The translations under genes were made by a program, and so were the position numbers. The notes beneath the pieces are model-generated. The model did no database searches. It had not been told where the DNA came from and saw only the letters and a program-made list of their open reading frames with translations. A stretch of DNA of 64,000 bases from Gammaproteobacteria bacterium (GTDB taxonomy: Bacteria > Pseudomonadota > Gammaproteobacteria > Xanthomonadales > Wenzhouxiangellaceae): positions 5,559-69,558 of the forward strand of contig JAJFKY010000020.1 of assembly GCA_021772975.1 (NCBI GenBank), read 5' to 3'. Shown in pieces: positions 3,150 through 54,769 of the stretch. Position 1 is the first letter of the stretch. The number at the start of each line of letters is the position of its first letter.

Positions 3150-3247
3150 GCCGGTAGCGGCGCAAAGCTGAAGCCCGGTCGTAAGCTGCTGCGGCAGGTT
3201 TTTATAGTTCCGACAGAGTGGATAACCAGGCTGATGCCAGTTGCGCT

Positions 3248-5004: not shown

Positions 5005-5035
5005 ATTTTCATCACTATCGTAAGGCAGTAATTTT

Positions 5036-16288: not shown

Positions 16289-16379
16289 TAATGTCTCCTT
16301 GATTGAGTGTGTTCGAGGGTAAATGCTAGAGTAATAAGCATGTGTATGCGCAAGCAGTTTTTCAAGCAACCGAAGTCTG

Positions 16380-22858: not shown

Positions 22859-22936
22859 GGCAGGTTTCAGGCCAGTGATAACTTGAGTCCGTTTATGGAC
22901 CGGGCGGGGCGCCCGGGCACGCTTTAAGCTACTGGG

Positions 22937-26969: not shown

Positions 26970-27058
26970 AACTACCTTTACCGTGGCATGGATAGTTTGC
27001 TTACAGACCAAAAGTCCGGTTCAGCGTATTTGTTATCCAATGCCTGTCTACAGTTCAT

Positions 27059-34094: not shown

Positions 34095-34119
34095 CAGTGG
34101 TTGCAGCGCTATAACGGGT

Positions 34120-34767
34120 TTATTCTTCCGCCATCCGCTGGGTTTGGGTCTGGATGTACTCCACTACAGCGTCCAGTCCTCCGGTCTCGAACAGCTTACT
34201 GTATTGCGAGCGTTTCAGTGCCAGATCACTGACCCCGCGGGTGGTGATATTGACGATCCGCCACTCGCCATGCTGTCGCAGCAGCAGGTAATCAAATGCA
34301 ATTCGCTCACCTTTGCCGGTAATCAGTTCATGTCGGACCTGAGCCCGGTTTTCGCCCGGTTGCGCAGCGCTGACCGGGGCAAAGCGCTCGTTGTTGAAAG
34401 TTGTAAAACGCGCTGCGTAGTTGGCCACCGTCAGGGCGCTGAAAGCCGCGCTGAAGCGGGCCTGTTCAGAGGCGCCGAACTCATTCCAGCGGCTGCCAAA
34501 CAAAAACCGCCCCATGCGGGGAAAATTAAATGCGCGTGCGATCACCGGCTGCAGGCGTTCGCTGCGGCCGGTATGGTTTAGCAGGTCGGTCTGCATACTG
34601 TTTAACAGGCTCTGCTCGAGGCTGTCCACCACCGCTTCAGGAGCTGCGTCAGCGGCGGCTGGCAGGCTTTGGGGCGGGGTCGGATTGTCGGCCTGGGCGA
34701 TGCCGGGCGGACTCAGATACAGCACCGTGGTGAGGCTGAAAATCAGGATAATGGCTGGCCTACGCAT
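34120..34767 (-). CDS. MlaC/Ttg2D-family periplasmic lipid-binding protein (HpnM-like)
   Basis: Signal peptide, 215 aa, with FNFPRMGRFLFGSRW and the FDYLLRQHGEWRIVNI pattern of toluene-tolerance Ttg2D proteins. It is adjacent to hpnN. Confidence 0.7.
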   Translation of the reverse strand: MRRPAIILIFSLTTVLYLSPPGIAQADNPTPPQSLPAAADAAPEAVVDSLEQSLLNSMQTDLLNHTGRSERLQPVIARAFNFPRMGRFLFGSRWNEFGASEQARFSAAFSALTVANYAARFTTFNNERFAPVSAAQPGENRAQVRHELITGKGERIAFDYLLLRQHGEWRIVNITTRGVSDLALKRSQYSKLFETGGLDAVVEYIQTQTQRMAEE

Positions 34768-34793
34768 GCTTTTGATCCTTACTGTTGTTTCGG

Positions 34794-35477
34794 TTAGTGA
34801 GGCAGGTCACGCAGCACTGCCGCCGCCGTCAGCAAACGCTGGCGCGCCAGCCGTTGCGCTCTGCCCAGAGCATAGACGTCACGCAGCCGGGCAGGTTCAC
34901 GCGCCAGCCAGCCGGCCAGCTTTAGCTTATGCGGCTGGGCAAAAGCATCGCAGCAGTCGATCAGACCACCGGGCAAAACCTGTTCGGCCGAGTCCAGTAC
35001 CGCCCGGATCACGATCGCAGGCACATCCTGCAGTGCGGCATTTCGCAGTACGGCGGCGCTTTCCATATCAGCGCTGGCGGCACCGGTAGCTGCCGCCAGC
35101 GCCGCTTTGTCTGAACGCGATGCCAACACCGCATGTGTTTCGGCCAGGGGCGCATCACAAACCTCAGTCTGGCATTGATTGAACCGTTGCCGGACACTGG
35201 TCAGTTTTGGCTGATCGCATACCAGGTTCTCACCATCGCTGGCTATCACCTGCGACGGCAGCAGCAAGCTGCCGCCGCGCAGGTCCACTCGCAGACCCGC
35301 CGCGCAGCCAAAACTGATCAGAGTGCGCGCACCCTGGGCCAGCAATGCCTTAGCCCCGGCCCCGGCCGCCTCAGCTCCCATGCCGGTCAGTTGCCAGCGA
35401 ATCCCGGTTGATCGTTTCAATACCCGTTGTAAACACTGTGCCTCCCAGCGCAGCGCCACCACTATTCCAATGCTCAT
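34794..35477 (-). CDS. hpnG: Hopanoid-associated nucleosidase/phosphorylase
   Basis: PNP/UDP family (MSIGIVVALRWEA ... ADMESAAV). The ATG at 35477 avoids overlap with shc. Confidence 0.75.
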   Translation of the reverse strand: MSIGIVVALRWEAQCLQRVLKRSTGIRWQLTGMGAEAAGAGAKALLAQGARTLISFGCAAGLRVDLRGGSLLLPSQVIASDGENLVCDQPKLTSVRQRFNQCQTEVCDAPLAETHAVLASRSDKAALAAATGAASADMESAAVLRNAALQDVPAIVIRAVLDSAEQVLPGGLIDCCDAFAQPHKLKLAGWLAREPARLRDVYALGRAQRLARQRLLTAAAVLRDLPH

Positions 35478-35499
35478 GTCCGCCCGGCGCAGTACGAAT

Positions 35500-37476
35500 T
35501 CAAGCCGGGCTTGCCGGGTCGCCAAGCTGGCGATAGCGGCTTAACGCCCACAACGGGAAATAATGGTTATAGCCGTGATAGCGCAGATAAAACACCCTCG
35601 GAAAGCCGGGCGCGTTGAACCAGGGGTCACTCCAGCTGCCGTCGGACTGCTGATGGTCGATTAACCAGTTGATGCCGCGTTTGACGGCCGGATGCTGAGT
35701 CTGGCCCGCCGCCATTAGAGCCAGTAAGGCCCAGGCGGTGTGACTGCCGCTGCTGAACGGCGCCTGGCCGTTGAGTTCAGGCTGGTCGTAACTGTGATTG
35801 GTTTCGCCCCAGCCGCCGTCTTCGCGCTGGCGTGACAGCAGATAATCAACCGCCCGCTGAAGGTACGCCTGCCGCGGGTCCTCGCCGGCAAAGATCAGCC
35901 CTGCCAGGACACTCCAGGTGCCATAAATATAGTTGGTACCCCAGCGGCCCCACCAGGAACCATCCGCCTGCTGATGGGCTTTCAGATAAGCGATGCAGTT
36001 TTGTATCGCCTGCCGATCGCATGGGCGCCGCAACATGCCCAGCGGCAGCAATACACGACCGGATACATCTTCGGTGGCGGGGTCCAGCAGTGCGCCGTGA
36101 TCGGCAAACGGAATACTGTTGAGATAGTACTTATCATTGTTTGCATCAAATGCGGCAAAACCACCGCGATTACGCCCCCGGCTGGACTGCAGTCCTACCA
36201 GCCAGTCGCAGGCTTGATGGATGGCATCGGTGTATTGGCCATCCTGGTTAACCACCTGCAGCAACGCCGCGACCATGGCGGTGTCATCCAGATCGGGGTA
36301 ATGCGGATTGGCATACTGGAAAGCCCAGCCACCGGGCGGTACGCCGGGAGCCTGAATCGCCCAATCACCGATAAATTCGGTTTCCTGTTTGCTGATCAAC
36401 CAGTCGCAGGCGCGTTGGATGGCCTGTTGGGTGGCTGCATCGTCACCGGCTCTCAGTAACGCCACCGCTGCCCAGCCGGTATCCCAGACCGGCGATACGC
36501 AGGGCTGACAATAGGCGCTGCCGTCTGGATATTCCACCAGCAGTTTTTCAATCGAACGTTTGCAGGTGGCGCGCAGCGGATGATCCTTGGGATAACCGAG
36601 ACAGTCCAGCGCCATGCAGGCGTTGACCATGGCTGGAAAGATGGCGCCCAGGCCATCTTCACCGTTCAGGCGTTTGACAAACCACTGTTCGGCACGCTGG
36701 ATGGCACGGCGGCGGATAAAAGCCGGCACCAACGGCTCGAGACAGTACAGCGAGAAACGCTCCAGGCCCTGCAGAAAGCCATTTAAGCGCGAACGTCGAG
36801 GGAAATAATCACGCACCTGCTCCGGTGGCGTGACAAACAGTTCCTGGATATCTACCCGGTTGGGATTAACGGCCTTCGGCTTATATGCATACAGCACAAA
36901 CAGCGGCACCATGACCGTGCGTGACCAATAGGATACCTTGCTGATATGAAATGGAAACCAGCGCGGCATCAGCATCACTTCGGGTGGAATAAACGGTACC
37001 GCCCGCCATGGCACCTGCTCGAACAGCGCCAGAGCAATGCGGGTAAACACATTCGCGCGTTCCGCACCGCCGGCCGCCCGAATGGCGGTGCGGGCCTGCT
37101 GCATATGCGCGGCATCCACGGCGTGACCGGCCAGCTTGAGCGCATAATAAGCCTTCACGGTGCAACTGATATCCATCGCGCCGCCGGTATATAAGGGCCA
37201 ACCGCCATCTTCCTGCTGGTGCCGGCACAGATATTTCGCCAGACGCTGCTGCAGCCCGGTATCAATTTCATCCATGCAGTGCATCATCATGATGTACTCA
37301 GCGGGGATGGTGCAATCGGCTTCCAGTTCGAAACACCAGTGACCATCAGCATGCTGGTGATCCAGCAGGTTAGCCCGGCCACGTGCAATCGCCTGATCCA
37401 GGCCGCGCTCCGTCTGGGGCGCCCGATCCGGGGGCTGATGGTCTGTCTGCTTGCGGCTGGCCAGGGATACTTGCAT
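35500..37476 (-). CDS. shc: Squalene-hopene cyclase
   Basis: 658 aa. DxDDTA motif (YPDLDDTAMV) and multiple QW repeats (GGWG, DGSW). Confidence 0.95.
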   Translation of the reverse strand: MQVSLASRKQTDHQPPDRAPQTERGLDQAIARGRANLLDHQHADGHWCFELEADCTIPAEYIMMMHCMDEIDTGLQQRLAKYLCRHQQEDGGWPLYTGGAMDISCTVKAYYALKLAGHAVDAAHMQQARTAIRAAGGAERANVFTRIALALFEQVPWRAVPFIPPEVMLMPRWFPFHISKVSYWSRTVMVPLFVLYAYKPKAVNPNRVDIQELFVTPPEQVRDYFPRRSRLNGFLQGLERFSLYCLEPLVPAFIRRRAIQRAEQWFVKRLNGEDGLGAIFPAMVNACMALDCLGYPKDHPLRATCKRSIEKLLVEYPDGSAYCQPCVSPVWDTGWAAVALLRAGDDAATQQAIQRACDWLISKQETEFIGDWAIQAPGVPPGGWAFQYANPHYPDLDDTAMVAALLQVVNQDGQYTDAIHQACDWLVGLQSSRGRNRGGFAAFDANNDKYYLNSIPFADHGALLDPATEDVSGRVLLPLGMLRRPCDRQAIQNCIAYLKAHQQADGSWWGRWGTNYIYGTWSVLAGLIFAGEDPRQAYLQRAVDYLLSRQREDGGWGETNHSYDQPELNGQAPFSSGSHTAWALLALMAAGQTQHPAVKRGINWLIDHQQSDGSWSDPWFNAPGFPRVFYLRYHGYNHYFPLWALSRYRQLGDPASPA

Positions 37477-37500
37477 GGTCTTATTTTGTCTGGTTATGCC

Positions 37501-38655
37501 TCAGGCGTGCATGGATTGTATTTTGACTGAGTTGCTACTGTCATCGGGATATTCAAAGCTCGGGTCGCAATCATCGTAGTTGGGTACCGGACGCTCAAAG
37601 TTGCTGATTTCGGTTATCGGTAAATGTTGACCGGCCTTGCTGAATAACCATTTCAGCAGTTTGTTGCTGCGCCCGAACAGTTTGCTCAGCACAATCACCT
37701 GCCTGACCCGGCGGCGGCTGACTTTGACCTCCTGACCACTGCGAAAGTGCGGCAGCTGGTGGATGTTTTTCAAGGTCAGAATGGCCAGCCCCAAAGCCCA
37801 CAGGCAAAACTTACGGATGCCGCCCTCTTTACGCGGCAGCATCAAGGTATAACGCAGCGCATTTTGAATATGTCCATGGGTGATGCCGATCAAGACATTC
37901 AGCGCCTGCTGAAAGTCAGCTGACTGATGCTGCGTTTCCAGTTGTGCCAGGGACACGCCGTGCTGGCGGAAAGTGGCCTGCGGCCACCAGCATACGCCGC
38001 GGCTGCGATCATCCCATACATCTTTGAGAATATTGGTCATCTGCAGCGCCTGTCCGAACGAGGGCGCCAGCTGCATCAACTGCTCACGTTGCCGTTCAAT
38101 GGCCGGGTCGTGGTGGCAGAACAGGTCGGTAAGCATTTCGCCCACCACGCCGGCGACGTAGTAGCAGTAAAAATCCAGATCACGCTGTGCCGCCAGACCG
38201 CTGCTGCAGGCGCTGCGCTGATAATGATTCATGCCGCGTCCCATCACCTGCACACAGCGGTATAGAGCCTGTTGCTGACCGCCCGACAGGCTGCGGGTAA
38301 CCGCAATGACCTGATGGGTGTTGGCAATCAACTCGCGTTCCGCCGCGAGTGTCTCCGGGGCCACCAGCGGTGCCACGCTATGGGCAAACTGGCGGGCATC
38401 GGAATGACCGGCGATGACCTCGATAAACTGTTGCTGATACTGAATTTTTTGCTGGGTATTCCAGGCGGCGTCATCTTCGATCGTATCGGCGATGCGGCAC
38501 AACAGGTAGGCGTTGGCCACCGCGATGTAGAGATCCTTGGGAAGCTGTGGAATCGTCAACGCAAAAGTGCGTGACACCGAAGCCAGGATATTTTCCTGAT
38601 AGGCCAGCGCGGAGGCCAGTGTGTCCTGAGCGGATACTGAAAGCGTTGCTTGCAA
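37501..38655 (-). CDS. sqs: Squalene synthase (single-enzyme, eukaryote-like farnesyl-diphosphate farnesyltransferase)
   Basis: SVSRTFALTIPQLP, LLCRIADTIEDD, YCYYVAGVVGEML and NILKDVWDD motifs. The start is uncertain: TTG at 38655 after AGGGAG, or ATG at 38829, which would add a non-conserved 58-aa extension. Confidence 0.82.
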   Translation of the reverse strand: MQATLSVSAQDTLASALAYQENILASVSRTFALTIPQLPKDLYIAVANAYLLCRIADTIEDDAAWNTQQKIQYQQQFIEVIAGHSDARQFAHSVAPLVAPETLAAERELIANTHQVIAVTRSLSGGQQQALYRCVQVMGRGMNHYQRSACSSGLAAQRDLDFYCYYVAGVVGEMLTDLFCHHDPAIERQREQLMQLAPSFGQALQMTNILKDVWDDRSRGVCWWPQATFRQHGVSLAQLETQHQSADFQQALNVLIGITHGHIQNALRYTLMLPRKEGGIRKFCLWALGLAILTLKNIHQLPHFRSGQEVKVSRRRVRQVIVLSKLFGRSNKLLKWLFSKAGQHLPITEISNFERPVPNYDDCDPSFEYPDDSSNSVKIQSMHA

Positions 38656-39097
38656 GATTGTGTGCTCCCTGGTTAGCCAATAACCGGCTTGATCACAGCC
38701 ACTATACCCGGCTGAGTCCTGGTTGGCCGCAATTGACTGCCGGCAGGGCAGTCGGCGAACCGCCGCGACAACGGGCTGGCGGCCTGCATCATCATTACAA
38801 TAGGTGTGCTTGAGTAACCCATAAATCAACCAAAGACTACTGTAGTCATCTGTCCAGGCATCCCTGCACCCACCTGCTGATGTTCCTCATCCGGTGTTTA
38901 GCCGCGTAGTATAATCGCTTGTTAAAATGTAACCCAAACCTCTGGTTATGCACGGTTGCCCGCCGGCTCTTTGCCAGCCGTAACAGCTGGCCTGTACCAA
39001 ACGGTTTCCGGGCAGGTTTCGCGCGGCGTGGAGGCAATATTTGATTAGCGATACCGGCGTCATTCACGCTGGTCAAAGTGACGGAATCTGGAGCGAT

Positions 39098-40000
39098 ATG
39101 ACCCACAACGACAGTTTCGCTGAGCAATCAGCAATCCTGGTGCAGCGCATTAATCAGTATCTGGACGAGTTGCTGTCACAGTCTTGCAGCAGTGAGCGTC
39201 TGCGGCAGGCGATGCGCCATGCGGTGCTGGCGGGCGGCAAGCGTATCCGGCCCTTGCTGGTATACGCCGCCGGCAGGCTGGCCGGTGCCGAGTTGCGCAA
39301 CCTGGATGCGGCCGCGGCCGCGGTTGAACTGGTGCACTGTTATTCGCTGGTACACGATGATCTGCCTGCCATGGATGATGATGATTTACGCCGTGGCCGT
39401 CCAACCCTGCACAAAGCCTTTGATGAGGCGACCGCTATTCTGGCGGGTGACGCGCTGCTGGCGCTAGCATTTCAATGTCTGGCGGATGCCGCCGCGGACT
39501 ATCCTGATTCGCGCGCAGTGACCGCCAGTCTGCGCGTGCTGGCGCATGCCAGTGGCGGCGCTGGCATGGTCGGCGGTCAGATGCTGGATATCGCCATGGC
39601 CGGCAGTTATCCGGACAAGGCACTGGTTGAACAGATGTTCAGCCTCAAAACCGGTGCGCTGATTCATGCCGCGGTGATGATGGGGGGGTATGCCTCGCGC
39701 CAGGCACCTGACCAGCAACTGAGTGCCCGGCTATCACATTTCGGCACAGCCATCGGCTTATGCTTTCAGGTTCAGGATGACATTCTGGACGTCACCGGCG
39801 ATACCGCCCGGCTGGGCAAGCCGCAGGGCTCGGACGAAGACAAGGATAAACCCAATTACGCGTTGCGTTACGGTCTGGATGTAGCCCGCCAGCGGGCCGA
39901 TGATTTATTTGCCGAAGCACACCAGAGTCTGGCGGAATACGGCTCCCGGGCTGAGCCGTTACGCTGGATGGCGGCGTATATTACCCGCCGCGATTACTAG
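39098..40000 (+). CDS. ispA: (2E,6E)-farnesyl diphosphate synthase
   Basis: FARM LVHDDLPAMDDDDLRRG and SARM FQVQDDILD. The ATG at 39098 has a GGAG RBS. It is divergent from sqs. Confidence 0.9.
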   Translation: MTHNDSFAEQSAILVQRINQYLDELLSQSCSSERLRQAMRHAVLAGGKRIRPLLVYAAGRLAGAELRNLDAAAAAVELVHCYSLVHDDLPAMDDDDLRRGRPTLHKAFDEATAILAGDALLALAFQCLADAAADYPDSRAVTASLRVLAHASGGAGMVGGQMLDIAMAGSYPDKALVEQMFSLKTGALIHAAVMMGGYASRQAPDQQLSARLSHFGTAIGLCFQVQDDILDVTGDTARLGKPQGSDEDKDKPNYALRYGLDVARQRADDLFAEAHQSLAEYGSRAEPLRWMAAYITRRDY

Positions 40001-45270: not shown

Positions 45271-46335
45271 CTAATCATCATTGATGGGCTCCACATAGGC
45301 GGTTAGTGCCTGGCGTATTTCCCGTTGAATTTCCGGCGTGGTCGCGGCGTTGGCGGTACGATGTTCATCGGCCAGTTCGAACATGCGCTCATACATGGCC
45401 TGATCGTCGACGGAACTGGCGATGCTCAGCGCTTTGCTATGGGTGAGCTGATGATCCCAGTAATCACGCACCTGTGCCCAGAACAGCTGGGTGTCCTGCA
45501 TATATTCGCTGGCCAGACGCAGCTCCGGAGCGCTGATGGGCAGGTAACGGTTCAAACCGTATTCGCGCGCAATGACCGGATTATTCTGGTCACGCCGCTG
45601 ATCCAGCTTGTAGTTATCCTGTTCATGATACCAGCCGTTCGGGGTGATGACATGCCGGTTGACCGCCACCAGCACATCATAGTCATCCCGCACCGTGTAT
45701 TCCCGGCGGGGTAATGGCCGCCAGGTGATTTCTGACTGCCATACGGATTGATTGCCGGTATGTCGCCAGCGTCCATAACCTTCATAGCGCGGGCTGTCAT
45801 CCACCTGGTAAACAGCTTGTGACCAGGTACCCAGCACCTGCTCGGGTTGCAGCACAACGTTATGCCAGCGGTTGTTACCGCGAAACTCCAGCATCGCCTG
45901 GTCCTGATAGACCCAATCCTGTCGCCAGTGTTTGATGGGGAAGCAGTCCGCTTCAATATCGATGGGCGTTACCGCGCTGTCATCAGCGTTATAGTCGGCA
46001 CTGTCGGATTCGGTTTCACAGGCTACCAGGACATGCTGCAGGACAATCCTGTCACCGGCATCTTCCAGCACCGTGATCCATTCAATCCCGCCCGAAGTAT
46101 ACGGTTCAGCCAGCGCATAGTCCGGGCGCACGGCAATGGTCTCCCGGAAACTGAAATCCACACTATAGCTGCCGGCCATGGCCAGAATAGCCTGCCGGTC
46201 ACGCTGAAAATCCGTTGCTTCAACAACCTTGATCGGTGCTGGTTGAGTGGGGCTGGTCTGGCAGCCGCCTGTCAGTATCCCAGCCAGGCACAGGCCGCCG
46301 GCTGCCAGCCGGGAAACACCATAAGAAGTCGCCAT
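45271..46335 (-). CDS. Probable lipoprotein of unknown function, TonB-receptor-associated
   Basis: The ATG at 46335 has a GGAGG RBS 5 nt upstream. The signal sequence has a lipobox-like ILTGGC. The protein is Trp/Tyr-rich. It starts 24 nt after the receptor stop. Confidence 0.7.
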   Translation of the reverse strand: MATSYGVSRLAAGGLCLAGILTGGCQTSPTQPAPIKVVEATDFQRDRQAILAMAGSYSVDFSFRETIAVRPDYALAEPYTSGGIEWITVLEDAGDRIVLQHVLVACETESDSADYNADDSAVTPIDIEADCFPIKHWRQDWVYQDQAMLEFRGNNRWHNVVLQPEQVLGTWSQAVYQVDDSPRYEGYGRWRHTGNQSVWQSEITWRPLPRREYTVRDDYDVLVAVNRHVITPNGWYHEQDNYKLDQRRDQNNPVIAREYGLNRYLPISAPELRLASEYMQDTQLFWAQVRDYWDHQLTHSKALSIASSVDDQAMYERMFELADEHRTANAATTPEIQREIRQALTAYVEPINDD

Positions 46336-46358
46336 AAGTTCCTCCGCGTAGTTCAAAG

Positions 46359-48683
46359 TTAGAAAGTGATGCGCAGTGCAGCGCTGAAATTAATGCCCGG
46401 CCGGCCCAGGCGTTGCAGTAACGGGTCATCCACCAGCCGGCCCTGCACATCTGGCCATTCGACGTAATTACTGTCGGTGATGTTGAATATCCCCAGGTTC
46501 AGCCGGGCGAAGTCGGTTAATTGCGCCCAGCCGGTGACATCGAGGGTGACAAATTCATCGCTGCGAGCCAGGTTTTCATCCGGGTCGTTCAAGCGATTTT
46601 GTGCACGGGTGTAGGTGCCATTCAGATTAACGCCGTAGCGACCGTCGATTGATTGCCAGATCAGGCCGCTTACCAGTTGGCCCGGGTTGACACTGTTCAG
46701 CGGGACATCAGCGCTGCGATCGTTGCCTTCGCTCCAGGCAGCCGATGTCCGCCAGCTCAATCCGGGCAGCCAATCATCCAGCCGCCATTGCATAGCCAGT
46801 TCCGCACCAAAGATTTCAGCGCTTTGCAGATTTACCGATTGAAACTGCAAAATGCCGTCGGTGCGCACATCGACCAGTGACAGTGATTCAATAAAGTCGT
46901 CATAACGGTTATAAAAACCGGTGAGCTGGAAATTAATAGCCCGCCAGGCGCCCCGCAGTCCTAACTCAAAGCTGTCACTGGTTTCCGGGCGTAAATCCGG
47001 ATTGGGCAGTGCGGTATAGCCAAATTGAAAGTTGGTAAAGCCGATGTTGACATCATTGAACGGCGGTGCCCGGAACCCCCGGGCATATTGCGCGACCAGA
47101 TCCAGACCGCCGCCGAGCTGCCAGATTAAACCCAGCTTGGGGGAAACGCTGAATTCATTCAGATCAACGGATTCGATGCCCGGGTTGTCGGCGATAAAAA
47201 TATCATCCGGATCAGAGTCCAGGTCGTAGTAATCCAGGCGCAAACCCGGGACCAGCAGCAAGCGTTTATCCAACAGCTCGATTTCGTCCTGAATAAACCA
47301 GCCGGCCGACAAGGTATCCGAATCCGGGAAGTCCCGTACCGGGAAGGTATCCGGACCGACGACATTGCTGATGTCTCCGGTCAGCAGACTCAGCGCAGTA
47401 CCGTCACGCAACTGGCTGGTGTCGACCTGTTCAACTTCAAAACCATAAACCAGCCGGTGCTGGACTGGTCCGGTGGCAAAGTGTGACTGCAGATACAGCT
47501 CAGCACCCCAACTGTGCTGGGCAAAGTCGAACACCCGAGTGCGCTGCTGTGGATCAGGTTCACCAAACACAATGGTGCTGCGCCGTTCGGTGGTGTTTTG
47601 ACGGGTCTCGGTGTGCTGGTAAAACAGCCGCCATTGACCACCAGCCAGCCAACCGCCGTTGCTGGTCAGGTCCTGTTCCAGGCTGACTCGCTGGCGTTCG
47701 AGCCGATCATCAGCCTGCACCAAAGTGGTATCAATCAGAAAAGGAAAACCAAACCCGGCGCTGAAATCCTGAATGCCGAGCAGCGACCGCACGTCCGTCA
47801 TGCTATCGGACTCCAGGCCATCCAGGGTCAAACGCAACGGGTTGTCATTCCAGTCATAGACCAGCTTGGCCAGCAGGCTGTAACTGCGTTCGGAAAACGG
47901 ATCGGCAGCCTGCTCGGCATTGGTTTCCAACTCGTCACTGTTGCGTCGGCTGACGCTGACCAGTGCTGACCAATCGTTCCATTTAGCGGCGCCGGTGACA
48001 CGCAGCGCATGCTGGTCGTTCGCGCTGAAGTAAGCGCCTTTGGCATCCGCGCTGTAGGTTTGTCCGGCCAGCACATCCAGCGGGTCTTTGGTAATAAAAC
48101 TGACCACCCCGCCAATGGCGTCAGAACCAAACAGGCTGGAAGCCGCGCCGCGTACAATTTCCACCTGTTTCAATAAATCAATATCGATAAAGTCGCGGCT
48201 GGCATTGGAAAAACTGCCAATTGCAAACGCGTCAGAAACCGGTACCCCGTCAATTTCAGTCAGCACCCGGTTGCCGCCGATGCCGCGGATAATGAAGCCA
48301 CCCAGACCAAACCGGCTGCCCTGATCGTTGATATCCACACCGGGGGTATAGCGAACCAGGGTTTTCAGATCACTGGATAAATCACGCTCCAGCTCTTCAC
48401 TGGTAATCACGCTGACGGTGCCGGTCAACTCAGTGATCTGCCGCGGGCTGCGGTTGGCGACCACCGTGACTTTACTAAGCTGAGCGCCGGCGGTATCCGA
48501 TTCAGCTGACGGTGGATCAGTTGGGATGTTGATATCCGCCGGGTCAGGTTCACCGCTGATGTCATCAGCGCTCCAGGCCGGGCTCAGACTGGCGGTGCAG
48601 GACAGCCAGCAGATAGCCAGTAACAAGAGCGTGGCTGGTGGCTTTCGCCCAGCTAGATCAGCGTCAGTTTTCGGCAAGCACAT
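46359..48683 (-). CDS. TonB-dependent outer-membrane receptor (probably heme/hemoprotein)
   Basis: 774 aa with a signal peptide, a plug (VTVVANRSPRQ... / GGFIIRGIGGNRV), a barrel, and a terminal ...AALRITF. It contains GFRAP...NPDLRPE boxes and lies downstream of hemP and a Fur box. Confidence 0.88.
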   Translation of the reverse strand: MCLPKTDADLAGRKPPATLLLLAICWLSCTASLSPAWSADDISGEPDPADINIPTDPPSAESDTAGAQLSKVTVVANRSPRQITELTGTVSVITSEELERDLSSDLKTLVRYTPGVDINDQGSRFGLGGFIIRGIGGNRVLTEIDGVPVSDAFAIGSFSNASRDFIDIDLLKQVEIVRGAASSLFGSDAIGGVVSFITKDPLDVLAGQTYSADAKGAYFSANDQHALRVTGAAKWNDWSALVSVSRRNSDELETNAEQAADPFSERSYSLLAKLVYDWNDNPLRLTLDGLESDSMTDVRSLLGIQDFSAGFGFPFLIDTTLVQADDRLERQRVSLEQDLTSNGGWLAGGQWRLFYQHTETRQNTTERRSTIVFGEPDPQQRTRVFDFAQHSWGAELYLQSHFATGPVQHRLVYGFEVEQVDTSQLRDGTALSLLTGDISNVVGPDTFPVRDFPDSDTLSAGWFIQDEIELLDKRLLLVPGLRLDYYDLDSDPDDIFIADNPGIESVDLNEFSVSPKLGLIWQLGGGLDLVAQYARGFRAPPFNDVNIGFTNFQFGYTALPNPDLRPETSDSFELGLRGAWRAINFQLTGFYNRYDDFIESLSLVDVRTDGILQFQSVNLQSAEIFGAELAMQWRLDDWLPGLSWRTSAAWSEGNDRSADVPLNSVNPGQLVSGLIWQSIDGRYGVNLNGTYTRAQNRLNDPDENLARSDEFVTLDVTGWAQLTDFARLNLGIFNITDSNYVEWPDVQGRLVDDPLLQRLGRPGINFSAALRITF

Positions 48684-48768
48684 AGCATCTCCTTATGGAT
48701 ACTTTTAGCGGGCTTGCTGGATGCAGCAGGTGAGCTGGCTGCGTCTGGCTGGCTGATGGTTGAAAGGG

Positions 48769-48954
48769 TTATTTGGTTAACAGCAATTTATTCTGCCGGG
48801 TTATCCGCAGGCAATACAGTTCACCGTTATGCTCGATCCACATCGATTGGCTGTCACCCAATAACAACTGGCTGGAGATTGGCTGATCTCTGCTGAAGAC
48901 CTTACCGCTATGCGGTCTGGATAGCTGGTTCGAGTCAGAAGTATTGTCTGCCAT
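48769..48954 (-). CDS. hemP: Hemin uptake protein HemP
   Basis: 61 aa from the ATG at 48954. The C-terminus WIEHNGELYCLRITRQNKLLLTK is the HemP signature. Confidence 0.8.
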   Translation of the reverse strand: MADNTSDSNQLSRPHSGKVFSRDQPISSQLLLGDSQSMWIEHNGELYCLRITRQNKLLLTK

Positions 48955-48956
48955 AT

Positions 48957-48975
48957 GCAAATGATAATCATTATC
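48957..48975. promoter_or_regulatory. Fur box
   Basis: gcaaatgataatcattatc matches 17 of 19 positions of GATAATGATAATCATTATC. On the minus strand it abuts a TATAAT hexamer directly upstream of hemP. Confidence 0.8.
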
Positions 48976-49134
48976 ATTATAAAGTCAACCACTCCTGGTG
49001 TTACCTTCTCGGGATCAACCCTGTCTGGCGCTATCCAGATGCTTGAGCCTGGGCTTGACTGTGGGTTGGCAGTGACCAGTAACGGACATGGCGCGCACTG
49101 TTATAATTGCCGCAGGTCCGAGCCAGGCAAAAGT

Positions 49135-49551
49135 GTGAATGACTTCCAGCAAAGGGTAGAGCTATCCACTACCCGTGTAACCAAACTGGTGTTTCCGCAT
49201 GACACCAACCATATCCGGACGCTGTACGGTGGCACCGCCATGCAATGGATGGACGAGGTGGGTTTTTTGGTGGCAACGCGTTTTTCCCGGCAGAAAGTGG
49301 TCACGGTTTCGATTGACCGGGTGGATTTCAAGGTGCCGATTCCGGAAGGCAGCATTGTCGAACTGGTGGGCAAGGTGATTCGGGTGGGCAACACCAGCAT
49401 GACCACCCGCGTGCAGATTTTTCGGGAAAATATGTTTGCCGGAGGTCAGCAACTGGCAGTCTCGGCGGAGATGGTGTTTGTAGCAGTCGGTGAAGACAAT
49501 AAGCCAACCCCGCTGAGTGTCCACCAGACCACCCCGGCTGAGCAGAGCTGA
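49135..49551 (+). CDS. Acyl-CoA thioesterase (YciA-like hotdog fold)
   Basis: TKLVFPHDTNHIRTLYGGTAMQWMDE ... VDFKVPI. The GTG at 49135 gives a normal length of about 138 aa. The ORF-track N-terminus (MQMIIIIII) is a translation of the Fur box. Confidence 0.75.
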   Translation: MNDFQQRVELSTTRVTKLVFPHDTNHIRTLYGGTAMQWMDEVGFLVATRFSRQKVVTVSIDRVDFKVPIPEGSIVELVGKVIRVGNTSMTTRVQIFRENMFAGGQQLAVSAEMVFVAVGEDNKPTPLSVHQTTPAEQS

Positions 49552-49554
49552 ACG

Positions 49555-50073
49555 GTGTATTACCTGGCTTATGGCTCCAACCTGCACCCTGCGCGCCTGT
49601 CCAAACGGCTGGGTTCGATCAACTGTATCGGGGTGACTGAACTGGCTGGCTGGCAGTTACGCTTTCACAAACGCGGCGCGGACGGTTCCGGCAAGGGCAA
49701 TCTGATTCAAGCCGCGGATATGACTGCCTGGGCTGTTGTGTATGAACTGGATGATAGCCAGAAAAACCGGCTGGATGAGTTTGAAGGTGACGGCTATGAG
49801 TGCGTCAATATGGATGTCACGGTCGTGCAACAGGACTATAGCTGTTTCTGTTATCTGGCCGAACCGGATTGGATTAATGACCAGCTGTTACCGCATGACT
49901 GGTACCGCGATCTGATTCTGCACGGTGCCCGGCACGCCGGATTTACCGCAGCTTATCTGCAGCTTATCCAGTCCCAGCAGGTGCAGATTGACGAGCTTGG
50001 ACGGCAACGGCATGCTGAGCTGTTGCAACATATGCAGCAGGCAGGCAGCCTGTTGATGCAGCACTATGGGTGA
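49555..50073 (+). CDS. Gamma-glutamylcyclotransferase (AIG2-like) family protein
   Basis: YYLAYGSNLHPARL N-terminal motif, 172 aa. Confidence 0.7.
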   Translation: MYYLAYGSNLHPARLSKRLGSINCIGVTELAGWQLRFHKRGADGSGKGNLIQAADMTAWAVVYELDDSQKNRLDEFEGDGYECVNMDVTVVQQDYSCFCYLAEPDWINDQLLPHDWYRDLILHGARHAGFTAAYLQLIQSQQVQIDELGRQRHAELLQHMQQAGSLLMQHYG

Positions 50074-50308
50074 TGGCACTGGCGGCCCGTGGTTGCCTTG
50101 CTGCCTGAATCAGCAGTCAAAATAAACCCGCCGTCTGGTTTGAGCTGATTCAAGCTGCGATTGATGTCCGGTCATGCAATAAGAACCAGCCCTGTTTTAT
50201 GCCGTGAATAGTTGCTGTTTTATTACGCAGGGCTGGCCATCAGCACTGGCTGTTTTTGGTAACGCAGCACGGACATAGCAACAATCAGTTGCCGGGAATG
50301 CTGAGGTA

Positions 50309-51862
50309 TTATTCCTGCGCCGCAACCGGCTTATCGCGATGCCGGTCCACCAGACAGTAAAATCCGAATACCGCATCGCTGTCATTGCGTAATTGATGCG
50401 CGCTGTTGGGCGGGACATAGGCAATATCGTGCGCTGAGAGGACTTGTTGCCGGCTGCCGATCTGTAGCTGGCCGGTGCCGCGTACACCGATAATCACATG
50501 CGTATGCCAATGTCGTTCGTGACTGGTGAAACCGCCGGGCTGTAATTCAAAATAGCGTAATTCGAAGTTGGTCTGGTGCGCTGCGCCGATCAGCTCAGTG
50601 CGCGAAGCATTCGCATGGGGCAGGTCCTGTGAGGTTTTATAGACAGTCTGCGGACGTTGTGGCCAGCCCGGTCCGGCCTGGGCTTTAAGCACCAGCGCTT
50701 CGCTGTGAGCCGTTGCGGTTGGCTTGAGCGGCGTATACCTGCCTGGATAGCGCGCCTGAATAACGGCCTGGTACTCTCGGGTGCTGGCCTGCAAATCCGG
50801 GCCATGCGCCAGCAGTGCGCCGCCGATCAGCAGCATCGCGTCAGCACCGTATTCATCCAGCATCTCCGGAATCAAATCCAGATGTTTACCGCCAGCCGGG
50901 CTGGGCAGGCTGGGCAGGCAGCCGCCGAGTGGATCGGTCAGGGCATGCTGGATCCGTTCACAGGTTGTTTCCTGGCTGGTAATGCGGCCGCCATGCCCCG
51001 GGAAAATGCTGATGTCAGCACCTGCCAGACGCAGCAGCGTGCCGTATAACACCGCTGGGGCAACGCCATGTTGAGCAGGGCGGGTAAAGCTTCCAGCCAG
51101 CGCCGGATGCGCCATATAGGCCAGTTCAAAATCGCTGGTTAATTGCTGGCAGTGGCCCAGGCCCATTACCCAGGGGCACAGCAGCACGCCCTGCAATCGC
51201 AGCGATTTGATCAGCGCCAGGCGACGTTTGAGATCATCGCCGGCGCCGGTGACATGGGGGAAATAAAGGCACGGTCGACCAGTCTTCTGAGTAGCCTGTT
51301 CAATGGCCTCCGCGGTGCCGGTAACACGCTGTCGAAACAGCTCAAAATCTTTTTCGACCAGGTTCTGGTCGTCTTTCAATACATCGCCACCACCGAGAAT
51401 AAAATCCCGCGCCAACCGCTGAAAGTAGGCAATGCTTTCGCCGCGTGGTTTCAGTACCGTGGCCAGCAGGGGACGTTCATGGATACCCAGCAATTCACGA
51501 ATACCGGCACTGCCCAGACGGGGGCCGCCGATGGCATCGGCCAGTTCATCCGGGATGCTCAATTGTTCCAGACGCACCTGGGGATACAGCGACACATTGC
51601 CATAAGCCAGATTGAACAACTGCCCGATCTGATCACTGGCCAGATAAGCGTGATAGCTGATCGTGGTCAGGTGTGAGCCATCGCGGGCCTGTTGCAGATC
51701 GATGACCTCGCCCACCACGCGCTCCCGCAGCTGTGCGCTGACCACTGATTCAACCACCTCTACTGTTTGCTCCCAGGCCATCGCACGGGCCAGGCTGGCG
51801 GCCTGATGAGGCGCGCACTGGATGCGGTAGCGGGCAATAATTTTTGCTGGTGATGCTTGCAT
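50309..51862 (-). CDS. RuBisCO-like protein (form IV large-subunit homolog) fused to a C-terminal cupin domain
   Basis: Residues 1 to about 372 carry LLATVLKPRG, GGGDVLKDDQNL and PHVTG blocks of RuBisCO large-subunit-type TIM barrels. Residues ~400-510 carry cupin motifs (GGFTSHERHWHTHV..G and VPPNSAHQLRN). Confidence 0.78.
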   Translation of the reverse strand: MQASPAKIIARYRIQCAPHQAASLARAMAWEQTVEVVESVVSAQLRERVVGEVIDLQQARDGSHLTTISYHAYLASDQIGQLFNLAYGNVSLYPQVRLEQLSIPDELADAIGGPRLGSAGIRELLGIHERPLLATVLKPRGESIAYFQRLARDFILGGGDVLKDDQNLVEKDFELFRQRVTGTAEAIEQATQKTGRPCLYFPHVTGAGDDLKRRLALIKSLRLQGVLLCPWVMGLGHCQQLTSDFELAYMAHPALAGSFTRPAQHGVAPAVLYGTLLRLAGADISIFPGHGGRITSQETTCERIQHALTDPLGGCLPSLPSPAGGKHLDLIPEMLDEYGADAMLLIGGALLAHGPDLQASTREYQAVIQARYPGRYTPLKPTATAHSEALVLKAQAGPGWPQRPQTVYKTSQDLPHANASRTELIGAAHQTNFELRYFELQPGGFTSHERHWHTHVIIGVRGTGQLQIGSRQQVLSAHDIAYVPPNSAHQLRNDSDAVFGFYCLVDRHRDKPVAAQE

Positions 51863-51957
51863 GGGTGTCTATGATAGGGGCTTTTTAAGCTGGACGGCAG
51901 ACAGCGGCGCGGACAAGCCTTACAATTCCCGGCCGGACCACAGCAACGCACAACATC

Positions 51958-52965
51958 ATGACCCAGCACCGTAGCCTGACCGGCATCACCACCTCTGGTA
52001 CCCCCCACCTTGGTAATTACGTGGGTGCGATCAAGCCGGCCCTGGCGGCCAGCCAGGACCCGGCGGCTGAAGCCTATTACTTTCTGGCCGACTATCACGC
52101 CCTGGTGAAATGCTTCGAACCGGAACGGCTGCATCAATCCACCCTGGAGATTGCTGCAACCTGGCTGGCGCTGGGTTTGGATACCAGCCGCGCGGTGTTT
52201 TACCGGCAATCGGATATTCCGGAAATTCCCGAACTGACCTGGCTGTTGACCTGCATGACCGCCAAGGGCCTGATGAATCGCTCACATGCTTATAAAGCCG
52301 CGGTCCAGGCCAATGAATCCGCCGGTGAAGACCCGGATTTCGGCCTCAGCATGGGTTTGTTCAATTACCCGATACTGATGAGCGCGGATATTCTGATGTT
52401 CAATGCAACCCATGTTCCGGTGGGCCGCGATCAGGCCCAGCATCTGGAAATGGCCAGGGATATCGCGCAGCGCTTTAATCATCATTACGGCGAACATTTT
52501 GTGTTGCCCGAAGCCGTGATCGATGCGCAGGTCGCCACACTGCCGGGCCAGGATGGCCGCAAGATGTCGAAAAGTTATGACAACACCATTCCGTTATGGC
52601 TGCCGGAGAAGCAGCTGCGCAAACAGATCATGCGGATTGTCACCAACTCGCAGGAGCCCGGTGAGCCCAAAGATCCGGACAGCGCTAATGTCTATGCCAT
52701 TTATGCCGCTTTTGCCACCCCCGAACAGCGTGCGGCGATGCGCGCGGCGTTTGCGGATGGTATTGCCTGGGGTGAGGTCAAGCAGCAGCTGTTCGAATTG
52801 ATTAACGCTGAACTGGCCGAACCGCGCGCCCGCTACCAGGAGTTGCTGGCCAGTCCGGCGATCATCGAAACTGAATTACAGGCTGGCGCAGCCAGGGCGC
52901 GTGCCTACGCCCGTCCGTTTATGCAGCGTCTGCGGTCGGCGGTGGGCATCGGCAGCCTGGCCTAA
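51958..52965 (+). CDS. trpS: Tryptophan-tRNA ligase
   Basis: The class I HIGH-like motif sits within [13 protein letters not shown], and KMSKS is present. 335 aa. Confidence 0.93.
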
Positions 52966-52993
52966 AGCAGGCTGCCTGAAGCAGAATAGCGAG

Positions 52994-53260
52994 ATGTTAG
53001 TTTCATTGGCTTTACTGGCGCCCATTGTGGCGGTGCTGTATTGGATATATCTGCGCACCAGCCATCCGGGCCGACGCTTAAGGGATTATCTCTGGCTACT
53101 GTTGATCATCGTGGTGGTGGTCTTGGTGACCGCGCTGACGCATCTGCTGGTAGACAGTTCAGACAGCAGTCTGTGGGTTTATGTATTGGCGCCGATGGTG
53201 GGTTATGGCGCTTTATTGACCGGTCTCGGTCTGGCATTCTGGCTGCGCCGCAGAAGCTGA
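52994..53260 (+). CDS. Small membrane protein (3 predicted TM helices)
   Basis: The ATG at 52994 gives 88 aa with hydrophobic segments. It has no family motif. Confidence 0.4.
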   Translation: MLVSLALLAPIVAVLYWIYLRTSHPGRRLRDYLWLLLIIVVVVLVTALTHLLVDSSDSSLWVYVLAPMVGYGALLTGLGLAFWLRRRS

Positions 53261-53362
53261 GCTTGGCCGTGGGGGCGGGATTCAGTGTGGCAGTCATGGC
53301 TTGTCAGTCGCGTATACTGTCACCATCTCAGCAGGCATGAATTCAGTCCAGCAGGCAAGGCT

Positions 53363-53662
53363 ATGTACTATTTGATCCGCGCACTGGATGCGCCCGGTAA
53401 ACAATCCGACCGGCAGGCCGCCCGTCCAGCGCATCTGCAGCGGCTGCAGGCCTTACGCGATGCCGGGCGGCTGTTGACCGCTGGACCGATTCCCGCCATC
53501 GACAGCAGTGAGCTGGCGCTGGCAGGGGTCAAAGGGTCCTTGATTGTGGCTGAGTTTGAGCACCTTGCAGCGGCCCGGCAATGGGCGGCGGACGATCCCT
53601 ACCAGGCCGCCGGGGTATATGCCGAGGTCGAGATCGAACCGTTCGTGGCGGTGTTTAAATGA
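53363..53662 (+). CDS. YciI family protein
   Basis: 99 aa from the ATG at 53363, with RPAHLQRL...GSLIVAEFE...A..W...DPY. Confidence 0.7.
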   Translation: MYYLIRALDAPGKQSDRQAARPAHLQRLQALRDAGRLLTAGPIPAIDSSELALAGVKGSLIVAEFEHLAAARQWAADDPYQAAGVYAEVEIEPFVAVFK

Positions 53663-53934
53663 CGGCTGAGCGCGTCCAGGTTATCCGCACTCGCCTGCAG
53701 CAGGCACTGCAACCTGAGCACCTGCAGATAGACGATGAGAGTCACCTGCATGCCGGTCATGCCGGCGCGAAGGATGGCCGGGGCCATTTTTTTGTCCACA
53801 TCGTCAGCCCGGTTTTTGCTGATAAAACGGCGGTGCAACGGCATCGGTTGATCTATCAGGCCCTGGGTGATCTGATGCAGACCGATATTCACGCCGTGCG
53901 TATAGAAGCGTTGGCAGCCAATGATTTTGAATAG
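53659..53934 (+). CDS. BolA family protein
   Basis: 91 aa with LQIDDESHLHAGH ... HFFVHIVSPVFADKTAVQRHRLIYQAL. There is a 4-nt overlap with the yciI-like gene. Confidence 0.85.
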   Translation: MTAERVQVIRTRLQQALQPEHLQIDDESHLHAGHAGAKDGRGHFFVHIVSPVFADKTAVQRHRLIYQALGDLMQTDIHAVRIEALAANDFE

Positions 53935-53974
53935 TCGCCACGCTGATAGCGAAGCTGGCGCACTGGGAAAAGCT

Positions 53975-54769
53975 ATGATTTTAAAACGTTATATAGTCAT
54001 TTTAATGTTGATTCTTGTGACGGGTCTGAGCGCGTGCTCGCGCGACGGTACTGATTTATCGGTGCCCGCGCTGGCCATGGTTGATGGCGTACCGATTACC
54101 CGCACTTTGCTGAATGTTTACCTGCAGCAGCAAGGCATCGCCGAGCCCACGCCGGAACAAACCGGAGAAGCGCTGAACAATCTGATTCAGCTGCTGGCGG
54201 TGTCCAACGCGGCGCGCGCGCAGGATGATTTTATCAGCCCGGAACTGAGTGCTGAACTCGAACTGCAACAGCGCCGTCTGTTGTTTGAGCGCTATGCTCA
54301 GAACTACATTGCCCGCTACCAGACCAGTGATGAAGAATTGCGCAAGCAATATCAGGAGACCGTGGCCAATACCGGTGGCAAGCAATACCGGTTGGAAACG
54401 GTGATTTTTCCGGATGAACAGCAGGCGCTGAGCGCCATCCTGGAATTGCAGAACGGTGCTGAATACAGCCGGATCGCCAGCAACCATCCCACTGAAGCGC
54501 TGGACTGGGTTGATCTGACTCAGATTCCAGGGGATTACGCGCAGGCGGTAAAAGCCACCGCAATCAATGGTATCGCACCGATTCCGCTGCCGTCACCGCA
54601 GGGCTGGCGACTGGTCAAAGTGGTGGAAACCCGCCCCTTTGATCCGCCACCGTTTGAGCAGGTTAAAGAGGGTATGCGGCGTGATCTGAACCGTCAGAAA
54701 GTCGAAGTATGGACCAACCGGCTGCGTGAGCAGGCCGATGTGGTGCTGGAGAATATCCAGGTTGAATAG
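53975..54769 (+). CDS. Lipoprotein, SurA/PpiC-type peptidyl-prolyl isomerase-like
   Basis: The ATG at 53975 gives the lipobox LSAC. It has a SurA-N-like helical part and a degenerate parvulin-like segment. Confidence 0.5.
   Translation: MILKRYIVILMLILVTGLSACSRDGTDLSVPALAMVDGVPITRTLLNVYLQQQGIAEPTPEQTGEALNNLIQLLAVSNAARAQDDFISPELSAELELQQRRLLFERYAQNYIARYQTSDEELRKQYQETVANTGGKQYRLETVIFPDEQQALSAILELQNGAEYSRIASNHPTEALDWVDLTQIPGDYAQAVKATAINGIAPIPLPSPQGWRLVKVVETRPFDPPPFEQVKEGMRRDLNRQKVEVWTNRLREQADVVLENIQVE

Follow-up and report, generated by a model that had tools for sequence, protein, structure and literature searches.

This study concerns a 64,000-nucleotide stretch of contig JAJFKY010000020.1 from a gammaproteobacterium of the family Wenzhouxiangellaceae (hereafter the window, meaning the whole stretch), in which one gene on the minus strand encodes a RuBisCO-like protein (RLP) joined through a short linker to a cupin domain. 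The fusion is real and widespread, and it represents a known two-enzyme system in fused, as yet uncharacterised form rather than a new pathway. That system comprises the DeepYkr-type RLP and the methylsulfurylase cupin encoded beside it, whose consecutive steps together define the shunt from 5'-methylthioadenosine (MTA) known as the MTA-isoprenoid shunt (PMC5893883, PMC4958253, PMC4334135). The domain identities, the closest characterised relatives, the conservation of catalytic-site residues and the relation between operon and fusion are established. The fusion protein probably unites the two consecutive shunt activities in a single chain, with substrates, products and channelling predicted from its sequence. 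The gene and its domains are laid out as follows.

50309..51862, minus strand: RLP-linker-cupin fusion open reading frame (ORF), 517 residues plus stop codon, complete and uninterrupted.
50747..51862, minus strand: RLP part, residues 1-372, with N-terminal domain and TIM-barrel catalytic domain, DeepYkr-like (PF00016, match to 3qfw, Foldseek).
50672..50746, minus strand: inter-domain linker, about residues 373-397, coil, of low model confidence and variable in homologues.
50312..50671, minus strand: cupin domain, residues 398-517, of Rru_A2000/methylsulfurylase type (PF07883 Cupin_2, structure-database matches).

The reading frame crosses the inter-domain region (50665-50750) without any stop or frame change, which is where a break between two separate genes had been considered in the preliminary description of this DNA, and the identical 517-residue product is encoded by three contigs from two independent sequencing runs. 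Both domains exceed their Pfam cutoffs within this single ORF, in agreement with the covalent form IV RLP-cupin fusion first proposed. An AlphaFold2 model of the 517-residue protein, built from an alignment of 119 homologues, reached a mean predicted local distance difference test score (pLDDT) of 94.3 and a predicted template-modelling score (pTM) of 0.86. In the RLP part, pLDDT was at least 94 in each 10-residue block except two at 89-90, and the only low-confidence stretch covered about residues 381-400 (61 for block 381-390 and 76 for block 391-400), assigned to coil by DSSP. Homology to free-standing cupins begins near residue 391-398, with W400, Y408 and K409 kept in fused and unfused forms; the true linker is therefore only about 25 residues long, somewhat shorter than the 30 or so initially described. 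Its Pro/Ala-rich character was correctly recognised: Pro, Ala and Thr abound in the linker of the window protein, and both its length and its sequence vary among homologues.

The same architecture recurs in many genomes. Among the best 120 matches in a collection of 5.8 billion proteins (42-73% identity), which served as the homologue set, the RLP domain was found in all 120, a recorded cupin match in 115, and a length of 493-591 residues in 118. Scanning of GTDB species genomes with the fused-family alignment yielded 342 confirmed stretches, the best 80 loci of which are all fused. The hosts among these 80 include Wenzhouxiangellaceae, Lysobacterales, Planctomycetota (Schlesneria and Phycisphaerae), KSB1, Acidobacteria, Nitrospiraceae, Firestonebacteria and Elusimicrobia. 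One MAG (locus L048) is assigned to the cultured species Schlesneria paludicola (DSM 18645), and the fusion is also carried by complete MAG chromosomes (OZ245999.1, OY282353.1, OY282378.1, OY282433.1, OZ243976.1, OZ244045.1, OZ245760.1 and OZ251545.1). The nearest relatives, 68-73% identical to the window protein, come from two Wenzhouxiangellaceae metagenome-assembled genomes (MAGs) and one unclassified gammaproteobacterial MAG, and the local gene order is common to the window and at least one of the Wenzhouxiangellaceae MAGs. Current database labels are generic ('cupin domain-containing protein' or 'ribulose-bisphosphate carboxylase large chain'). The domain architecture, for which a database search had been proposed, is thus frequent in public data; no published description of an RLP-cupin fusion was found in the literature searched, and primary papers of 2008-2012 may contain a passing mention.

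The two domains are also encoded by neighbouring genes. With an alignment of three free-standing cupins as query and one genome per GTDB species, at least 590 relatives were detected, and the best 80 loci were examined. In 78 of these 80, the cupin gene is directly preceded by an RLP gene on the same strand, often with the stop codon of the one and the start codon of the other overlapping by 4 or 8 nucleotides. The gene order, RLP then cupin, equals the N-to-C order of the domains, and the window protein is therefore a Rosetta-stone fusion. Loss of the stop codon in such a translationally coupled pair would offer an easy route to it. By the same token, a single-base error could fuse two genes whose stop and start codons overlap, and this is what makes a sequencing or assembly artefact conceivable at all. 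Such a merger of adjacent RLP and cupin genes is nevertheless barely credible: apart from the identical product on three contigs and two runs, our own ORF calling on the window and 80 genomes recovered an uninterrupted fused ORF at 73 of these 81 related loci, the fused sequences formed a clade of their own for both domains in trees built from the top 120 fused and the top 80 operon sequences, and the AlphaFold2 model is confident across both domains. Judged by these sequences, the RLP-cupin fusion is under selection and not an artefact, occurring in at least 80 species-level genomes of several phyla.

The clean separate clades of those first trees had also been read as the trace of a single fusion event. 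In a wider representative set, fused and solo forms are interleaved, which identifies the clean clades as a sampling effect, and the single-fusion reading was dropped. Fused proteins with KDDQN, KDDHN and KDDHG motifs at the metal site occur in several parts of the family, and parsimony on a neighbour-joining tree requires at least 18 changes between fused and solo forms, a rough count given the distance method and the single outgroup. Fusion and fission thus appear to be recurrent across the sequences compared. Other architectures were encountered as well. One relative, P0124 (726 residues), is a Rosetta-stone fusion of another kind, with an inositol-monophosphatase-family domain (91-294) N-terminal to a KDDHN-type RLP (358-720); the idea that long relatives of this kind are MtnA-RLP fusions was thereby ruled out. 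Four further proteins of 705-785 residues (P0230, P0232, P0255 and P0261) consist of RLP, cupin and extra unassigned sequence.

The identity of the RLP half was addressed by profile, sequence and fold comparison. Pfam RuBisCO_large (PF00016) matches residues 121-365 with 71.3 bits (cutoff 30.1); the match to the N-terminal RuBisCO domain is sub-threshold (15 against 20.7), and this region is covered from residue 4 by the alignment to 3qfw, an RLP of Rhodopseudomonas palustris. Among sequences of solved structure, 3qfw is the closest (E 2.4e-63 over residues 4-357), followed at a distance by enolase-type MtnW (E 1e-46) and Photo-type RLPs (E 1e-26). It is also the closest fold. Foldseek aligned the model with RLP and RuBisCO structures at TMt values of 0.74-0.93 (alignments of about 370-409 columns), the highest being that of 3qfw (0.93, root-mean-square deviation 1.7 A), which exceeds the MtnW structures (0.80-0.85) and any RuBisCO. 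The NCBIfam models of the enolase (mtnW) remain below cutoff (NF007095, 208 against 409; TIGR03332, 165 against 514), as do those of RuBisCO form III (153 against 497), form I (140 against 438) and form II (32 against 489). Furthermore, the full carboxylase active-site set is missing, with Arg at the Lys177 equivalent (in LKPRG) and Gln at the Glu204 equivalent. By these comparisons, the RLP half is a form IV RLP and not a bona fide RuBisCO, and it is closest to the DeepYkr 5-methylthioribulose-1-phosphate (MTRu-1P) 1,3-isomerase type, not to the enolase-type YkrW/MtnW. The phylogenetic placement agrees: when 136 family representatives and 3qfw were arranged by neighbour joining with MtnW as the root, the window clade fell inside the 3qfw-containing DeepYkr group, a placement that is provisional for a distance tree with one outgroup.

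Residue conservation points in the same direction. At least 95% conservation in both fused and operon-type proteins was found at 45 RLP positions, among them K138, K163, D164, D165, H252, G291-G292-R293, G324-G325 and G347-G348. Both phosphate-binding Gly-Gly motifs belong to these 45, as do the equivalents of Lys175 and of the carbamate Lys and Asp; fused and operon-type proteins are fixed for different residues at just four positions (85, 133, 166 and 167). K138, P139 and G141 of the LKPRG motif are present in 119 of the 120 fused homologues, with a gap in the remaining one, and are at least 95% conserved in unfused DeepYkr RLPs. The third motif of this half, PHVTG, corresponds to residues 202-206. 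The motifs quoted in the preliminary description (LKPRG, KDDQN, PHVTG and, in the cupin, HERHWHTHV and PPNSAHQLRN) all lie where it had placed them.

51440..51454, minus strand: LKPRG, residues 137-141, with Lys138 as the equivalent of RuBisCO Lys175 (read from the sequence).
51362..51376, minus strand: KDDQN, residues 163-167, with Lys163 and Asp165 corresponding to the RuBisCO metal ligands Lys201 and Asp203, and Gln166 at the Glu204 position (read from the sequence and the alignment).

HMMER aligns this stretch without gaps to DLVKDDEILF of G. kaustophilus MtnW and to DLIKDDHGLA of 3qfw, which secures the Gln at the Glu204-equivalent position. In the 120 fused homologues, K163, D164, D165 and N167 are invariant, and position 166 is Gln in 117, His in three and never Glu. 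The operon-type RLPs carry KDDHG in 75 of 78 cases. When the RLP half by itself was searched exhaustively with HMMER against 1.84 billion cluster representatives, 222 matched at E 1e-30 or better, and no Glu occurs at the Glu204 position among the best 150 of these 222; a readable KDD motif was present in 141 of the 150, the residue at this position being reported as His (123), Gln (27), Asp (one) and Asn (one). Since Glu is missing throughout the nearest relatives, the 'altered metal site' noticed at first is a family trait and not a peculiarity of the window protein, the replacement of Glu by Gln itself having been read correctly. On this survey, His is the residue of classical DeepYkr proteins, and the window protein is part of a KDDQN subclade in which Gln is fixed. 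Among the marks of DeepYkr RLPs, the association with a methylsulfurylase-type cupin is present, the cupin being attached covalently at the C-terminus, whereas the KDDH(G) motif is replaced by KDDQN; KDDHN intermediates, both fused and solo, bridge the two motifs in the tree.

The cupin half matches Pfam Cupin_2 (PF07883) over residues 437-500 with 42 bits (cutoff 27.2), its only other Pfam matches being AraC_binding and MannoseP_isomer (E up to 0.1). The acireductone dioxygenase (ARD) family PF03079 gave no Pfam match to the 517-residue protein at E up to 0.1. When the cupin half alone was compared with solved structures, 3ibm from Halorhodospira (E 3e-20), 3jzv, which is Rru_A2000 (7e-19), and 3kgz from R. 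palustris (3e-18), presumably RPA2170, were retrieved first; the next cupin, TM1459, follows at E 4e-9, about ten orders of magnitude behind the Rru_A2000-type matches. Based on these relationships, at about 35% identity to characterised members, the cupin half belongs to the Rru_A2000-type 1-methylthio-xylulose-5-phosphate (MTXu-5P) methylsulfurylase family.

50498..50518, minus strand: cupin motif 1, E449-x-H451-x-H453-x-H455, presumed metal ligands, within HERHWHTHV (residues 448-456); invariant in 120 fused homologues.
50393..50398, minus strand: cupin motif 2, H489-Q490, the His being the presumed fourth metal ligand and the Gln invariant, within PPNSAHQLRN (residues 484-493); invariant in fused and at least 90% conserved in unfused members.
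50354..50356, minus strand: Cys503 in GFxCxV...RDxP, candidate nucleophile in the transfer of the methylthio group; present in all 120 fused and at least 90% of unfused members.

In the comparison with 81 free-standing members, 25 cupin positions are at least 90% conserved in both forms, including E449, H451, H453, H455, H489, Q490, C503, R509 and D510. The signature RYFE, E-x-H-x-H-x-H, H-Q, G-F-x-C-x-V and R-D-x-P is complete in the window protein, invariant in the 120 fused homologues and at least 90% conserved in the free-standing ones. LERHxHxH in 3jzv, 3ibm and 3kgz matches the first window motif, and E449, H451 and H455 align to three ligand positions of the Mn cupin TM1459. In addition, Cys503 is aligned with a Cys in all three of these closest structures. 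In work by Warlick and colleagues from 2012, this Cys is said to be the nucleophile that accepts the methylthio group in Rru_A2000.

Taken together, the two halves allow the combination first suggested to be judged, namely an enolase, isomerase or epimerase RLP and an ARD-like cupin catalysing two steps of oxygen-dependent methionine salvage or of a new sugar-acid pathway. Both folds do occur in the canonical salvage pathway (MtnW and MtnD), and the best-scoring NCBIfam model for the RLP half is the 2,3-diketo-5-methylthiopentyl-1-phosphate (DK-MTP-1-P) enolase. That model and its sister fall far short of their cutoffs, however, the DeepYkr isomerase 3qfw comes first in both sequence and fold, and the KDDE triad of MtnW is missing. 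On the cupin side, the Pfam assignment is only to generic Cupin_2 with no match to ARD, and the specific relatives form the methylsulfurylase group, so that the likeness to ARD did not hold. This combination is therefore very unlikely. The part of the original proposal that most likely stands is that consecutive steps of a salvage-type pathway are joined; the sugar-acid pathway gives way to the known MTA-isoprenoid shunt.

The biochemistry of this shunt, a bacterial route by which the waste nucleoside MTA is turned into methanethiol and a precursor sugar phosphate, has been described for the unfused enzymes. The DeepYkr RLP (Rru_A1998 in R. rubrum; RLP1, RPA2169, in R. palustris) is a 5-methylthioribulose-1-phosphate 1,3-isomerase (PMC5893883, PMC4958253), which forms MTXu-5P and the ribulose isomer in a ratio of 3:1 (PMC5893883, PMC4958253, PMC4334135), the kcat being about 1.2-1.3 per s in R. 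rubrum as well as in R. palustris (PMC5893883). The RLP product is the substrate of the cupin encoded next to it (Rru_A2000, RPA2170), the MTXu-5P methylsulfurylase (PMC5893883, PMC4958253). In R. rubrum, glutathione is the in vivo co-substrate of the methylsulfurylase; the methylthio group is released and 1-deoxyxylulose 5-phosphate (DXP) is formed (PMC4334135).

By analogy, a reaction sequence can be proposed for the fused protein. MTA would be converted to MTRu-1P by MtnP, or MtnN and MtnK, together with MtnA, encoded elsewhere in the genome. The RLP half, probably a dimer like other RLPs, whose active sites are located at the interface of the dimer, would then isomerise MTRu-1P to MTXu-5P through Lys138 and a metal site formed by carbamylated Lys163, Asp165 and Gln166. 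MTXu-5P would next be bound by the tethered cupin, at the His/Glu metal centre, and Cys503 or an external thiol such as glutathione would remove the methylthio group, giving DXP and a methylthio-thiol adduct, from which methanethiol could be released for methionine resynthesis. The fusion derives from an RLP-cupin operon whose genes are adjacent and often overlapping, and it presumably fixes a 1:1 ratio of the two activities and hands the intermediate directly to the second site.

The shunt reading is favoured because the nearest characterised relatives of the two halves are the two members of the known pair, the operon order equals the domain order, and the catalytic residues are conserved. 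Several observations weigh against it. Identity of the fused RLP to operon-type DeepYkr RLPs is no more than about 35%, little above the 33% seen with enolase-type MtnW, and a metal-site residue is Gln in the window protein where the characterised enzymes have His. No mtnA (IF-2B family), mtnP or mtnK was found in a Pfam scan of all major ORFs of the 64-kb window. Among the 73 fused loci, ORF clustering combined with Pfam revealed no neighbour family in more than seven, and the ten recurrent families that were scanned (PrmC, TPR, rotamase, LysR, RelA/SpoT, MurB, PGPGW, DUF1501, Mal s 1-like and one without Pfam match) contain no mtn or other pathway gene; the survey relied on a naive ORF caller that is prone to antisense ORFs in GC-rich loci and may miss weak associations. 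Moreover, solo KDDQN RLPs exist that have no adjacent cupin, of 382 (P0121) and 385 (P0125) residues and 43-45% identical to the RLP half of the window protein.

5001-6149 of locus L169: P0121, solo KDDQN RLP, with the divergent trpS neighbour kept and a cupin not found downstream.
2713-3870 of locus L171: P0125, solo KDDQN RLP, with SDR and Ldh_2 genes as neighbours and neither a fused nor an adjacent cupin.

The KDDQN subclade may thus not be functionally uniform, and these proteins suggest either loss of the cupin domain or a cupin-independent role in part of it. Finally, the window itself encodes a mevalonate pathway (described below), which makes the isoprenoid destination of DXP doubtful in this host.

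Some of these points lend themselves to a different explanation, in which the same types of reaction (1,3-isomerisation of a pentulose phosphate followed by removal or transfer of a thio substituent by the cupin) act on a different substrate or in a different pathway, the KDDQN subclade having diverged in specificity. Both halves are only about 35% identical to characterised members, two metal-site positions are fixed differently (Gln for His at 166 and Asn for Gly at 167), no mtn genes lie near the fusion gene, the solo KDDQN RLPs stand in unrelated contexts (one by SDR and Ldh_2 genes, one without a cupin), and P0124 combines a related RLP with an inositol-monophosphatase-family domain. Apart from such differences, almost every conserved position in either domain is nevertheless found in the operon-type enzymes too, and the cupin keeps its metal ligands and invariant Cys. 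The missing neighbours carry no argument against the shunt, as they are expected from R. rubrum, where mtnP and mtnA (Rru_A0361/0360) are likewise unlinked from the RLP-cupin pair Rru_A1998/2000 (PMC4958253, PMC4334135). Divergence in substrate is accordingly a serious possibility, yet one less probable than the shunt reading. For the latter, the lineage offers a plausible source of substrate. The gene table of the cultured Wenzhouxiangella strain AB-CW3 lists MtnA, the enzyme that makes the proposed substrate, divergent from gyrA at a distance of 250 bp (PMC7691419 supplement). The window opens with about 590 bp upstream of gyrA (1-593) that contain no ORF in any frame, gyrA being its first gene. 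The check for mtn genes that had been suggested for the genome was negative within the 64-kb window.

The mevalonate genes of the window form a cluster, recognised by Pfam scan.

24116-29010, minus strand: mevalonate-pathway cluster.
24708-27011, minus strand: HMG-CoA reductase fused to a GHMP (mevalonate) kinase, 767 residues.
27059-28129, minus strand: second GHMP kinase.
28126-29010, minus strand: diphosphomevalonate decarboxylase.
24116-24796, minus strand: NUDIX protein that may be an isopentenyl diphosphate isomerase.

The same layout, which is unusual for a gammaproteobacterium, occurs in Wenzhouxiangella AB-CW3 (HMG-CoA reductase of 757 residues), and the mevalonate pathway is characteristic of Wenzhouxiangella (PMC7691419). 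No genes of the DXP pathway (methylerythritol phosphate, MEP) were found in the Pfam scan of the window. DXP may be used by MEP enzymes encoded elsewhere, may enter thiamin and pyridoxal phosphate synthesis, or may have no use beyond sulfur salvage. A more elaborate and rather improbable proposal combines these elements: Wenzhouxiangellaceae would make their isoprenoids via mevalonate, the DXP that the fused enzyme makes from MTA, independently of Dxs, would go into thiamin and pyridoxal phosphate and not into isoprenoids, or the enzyme would serve sulfur salvage or MTA detoxification alone, and the exchange of His for Gln would mark a subfamily distinct in mechanism or substrate.

Among known systems, the DeepYkr RLP and cupin pair (Rru_A1998/Rru_A2000; RPA2169, which is 3qfw, and RPA2170) is closest, providing the best sequence match of both window domains and the best fold match of the RLP. 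The two systems have in common the order of their parts, from operon to polypeptide, the Lys/Lys-Asp-Asp core and phosphate-binding glycine motifs of the RLP, and the E-x-H-x-H-x-H and H-Q motifs and invariant Cys of the cupin. They differ in that the pair is encoded by two genes and the window protein is one polypeptide, in that His-Gly follows KDD in the former and Gln-Asn in the latter, and in host, the window coming from a gammaproteobacterium that is not phototrophic and has mevalonate-pathway genes in this same stretch; their identity reaches only some 35%. The DK-MTP-1-P enolase YkrW/MtnW of B. subtilis and G. kaustophilus (2oek, 2zvi) has the form IV RLP fold in common with the window protein (33% identity) and draws its substrate from the same upstream branch from MTA to MTRu-1P, but it carries the KDDE triad, a longer C-terminus and no cupin partner, and its equivalog cutoffs are missed two- to threefold. 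Precedent for MTA-recycling enzymes joined in a single polypeptide is given by MtnBD and MtnAK of Tetrahymena (PMC3698126, PMC6302742); these eukaryotic fusions consist of unrelated folds (an aldolase-II dehydratase and an ARD cupin) and belong to the oxygen-dependent canonical pathway. ARD/MtnD cupins, in turn, have the cupin beta-barrel and the His/Glu metal site in common with the window cupin, but the latter has no ARD family signal, and its Cys-containing GFxCxV...RDxP signature places it in the methylsulfurylase group.

The fusion independently corroborates the functional coupling of the DeepYkr RLP and the methylsulfurylase cupin, previously established in two alphaproteobacteria only, and it would extend the phylogenetic range of the shunt. 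It permits a better annotation name than the current generic labels. Furthermore, a natural single-chain version becomes available for the study of intermediate hand-off, which is of interest here as the RLP gives a 3:1 product mixture of which the xylulose isomer alone is known as a cupin substrate. The family also offers a natural series of His, Gln and Glu at a metal site of the RuBisCO superfamily, and its occurrence in an organism with the mevalonate pathway raises the question of how DXP is used. Current understanding is not overturned by these results, and a specialist would not be surprised by them.

The gene neighbourhood of the fusion is simple. A trpS-like tRNA-synt_1b gene (51958-52965) is divergent from it, and a GGACT/AIG2-family gene (gamma-glutamyl cyclotransferase-like; 49555-50073, plus strand) is convergent with it. 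With opposite-strand genes on both sides, the fusion gene is by geometry a single-gene transcription unit, which confirms the monocistronic arrangement without adjacent pathway genes described at the outset. No riboswitch or other Rfam element was found in 48000-54000 of the window, and promoter and terminator scans gave signals no better than chance. A 4HBT thioesterase gene (48955-49551, plus strand) is likewise convergent with the fusion gene. The order trpS, fusion, GGACT/AIG2, 4HBT, CMD, AhpC, LysR is kept in relatives down to 48% identity and not outside the lineage. A link of the GGACT/AIG2 and 4HBT genes to turnover of a glutathione-methylthiol adduct is conceivable, and lineage synteny would explain the arrangement equally well.

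Further into the window, a hopanoid/squalene cluster occupies 21728-24097 and 31452-40000, with the following genes.

21728-22858: GT2 gene.
22937-24097: radical SAM plus DUF3463 gene, HpnH-like.
31452-34094: HpnN-like MMPL transporter.
34120-34767: MlaC.
35500-37476: squalene-hopene cyclase.
37501-38829: SQS_PSY.
39041-40000: polyprenyl synthetase.

The sole PNP_UDP_1 gene of the window (34794-35525) lies inside this cluster, is HpnG-like and makes no convincing MtnP. A TonB-dependent receptor (774 residues) followed by a DUF6607 protein (45271-48683, minus strand) forms a pair that is kept beside the same block in a related Wenzhouxiangellaceae chromosome. Elsewhere, an Fe/Mn superoxide dismutase ORF (15707-16498, minus strand) has an unusually long N-terminus, its Pfam domain starting from residue 74. 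No HyuA partner was noticed beside the Hydantoinase_B/oxoprolinase gene at 16380-17948 (plus strand). The superoxide dismutase ORF overlaps the listed TTG start of that gene by about 120 nucleotides, and one or both start codons are therefore probably mis-assigned.

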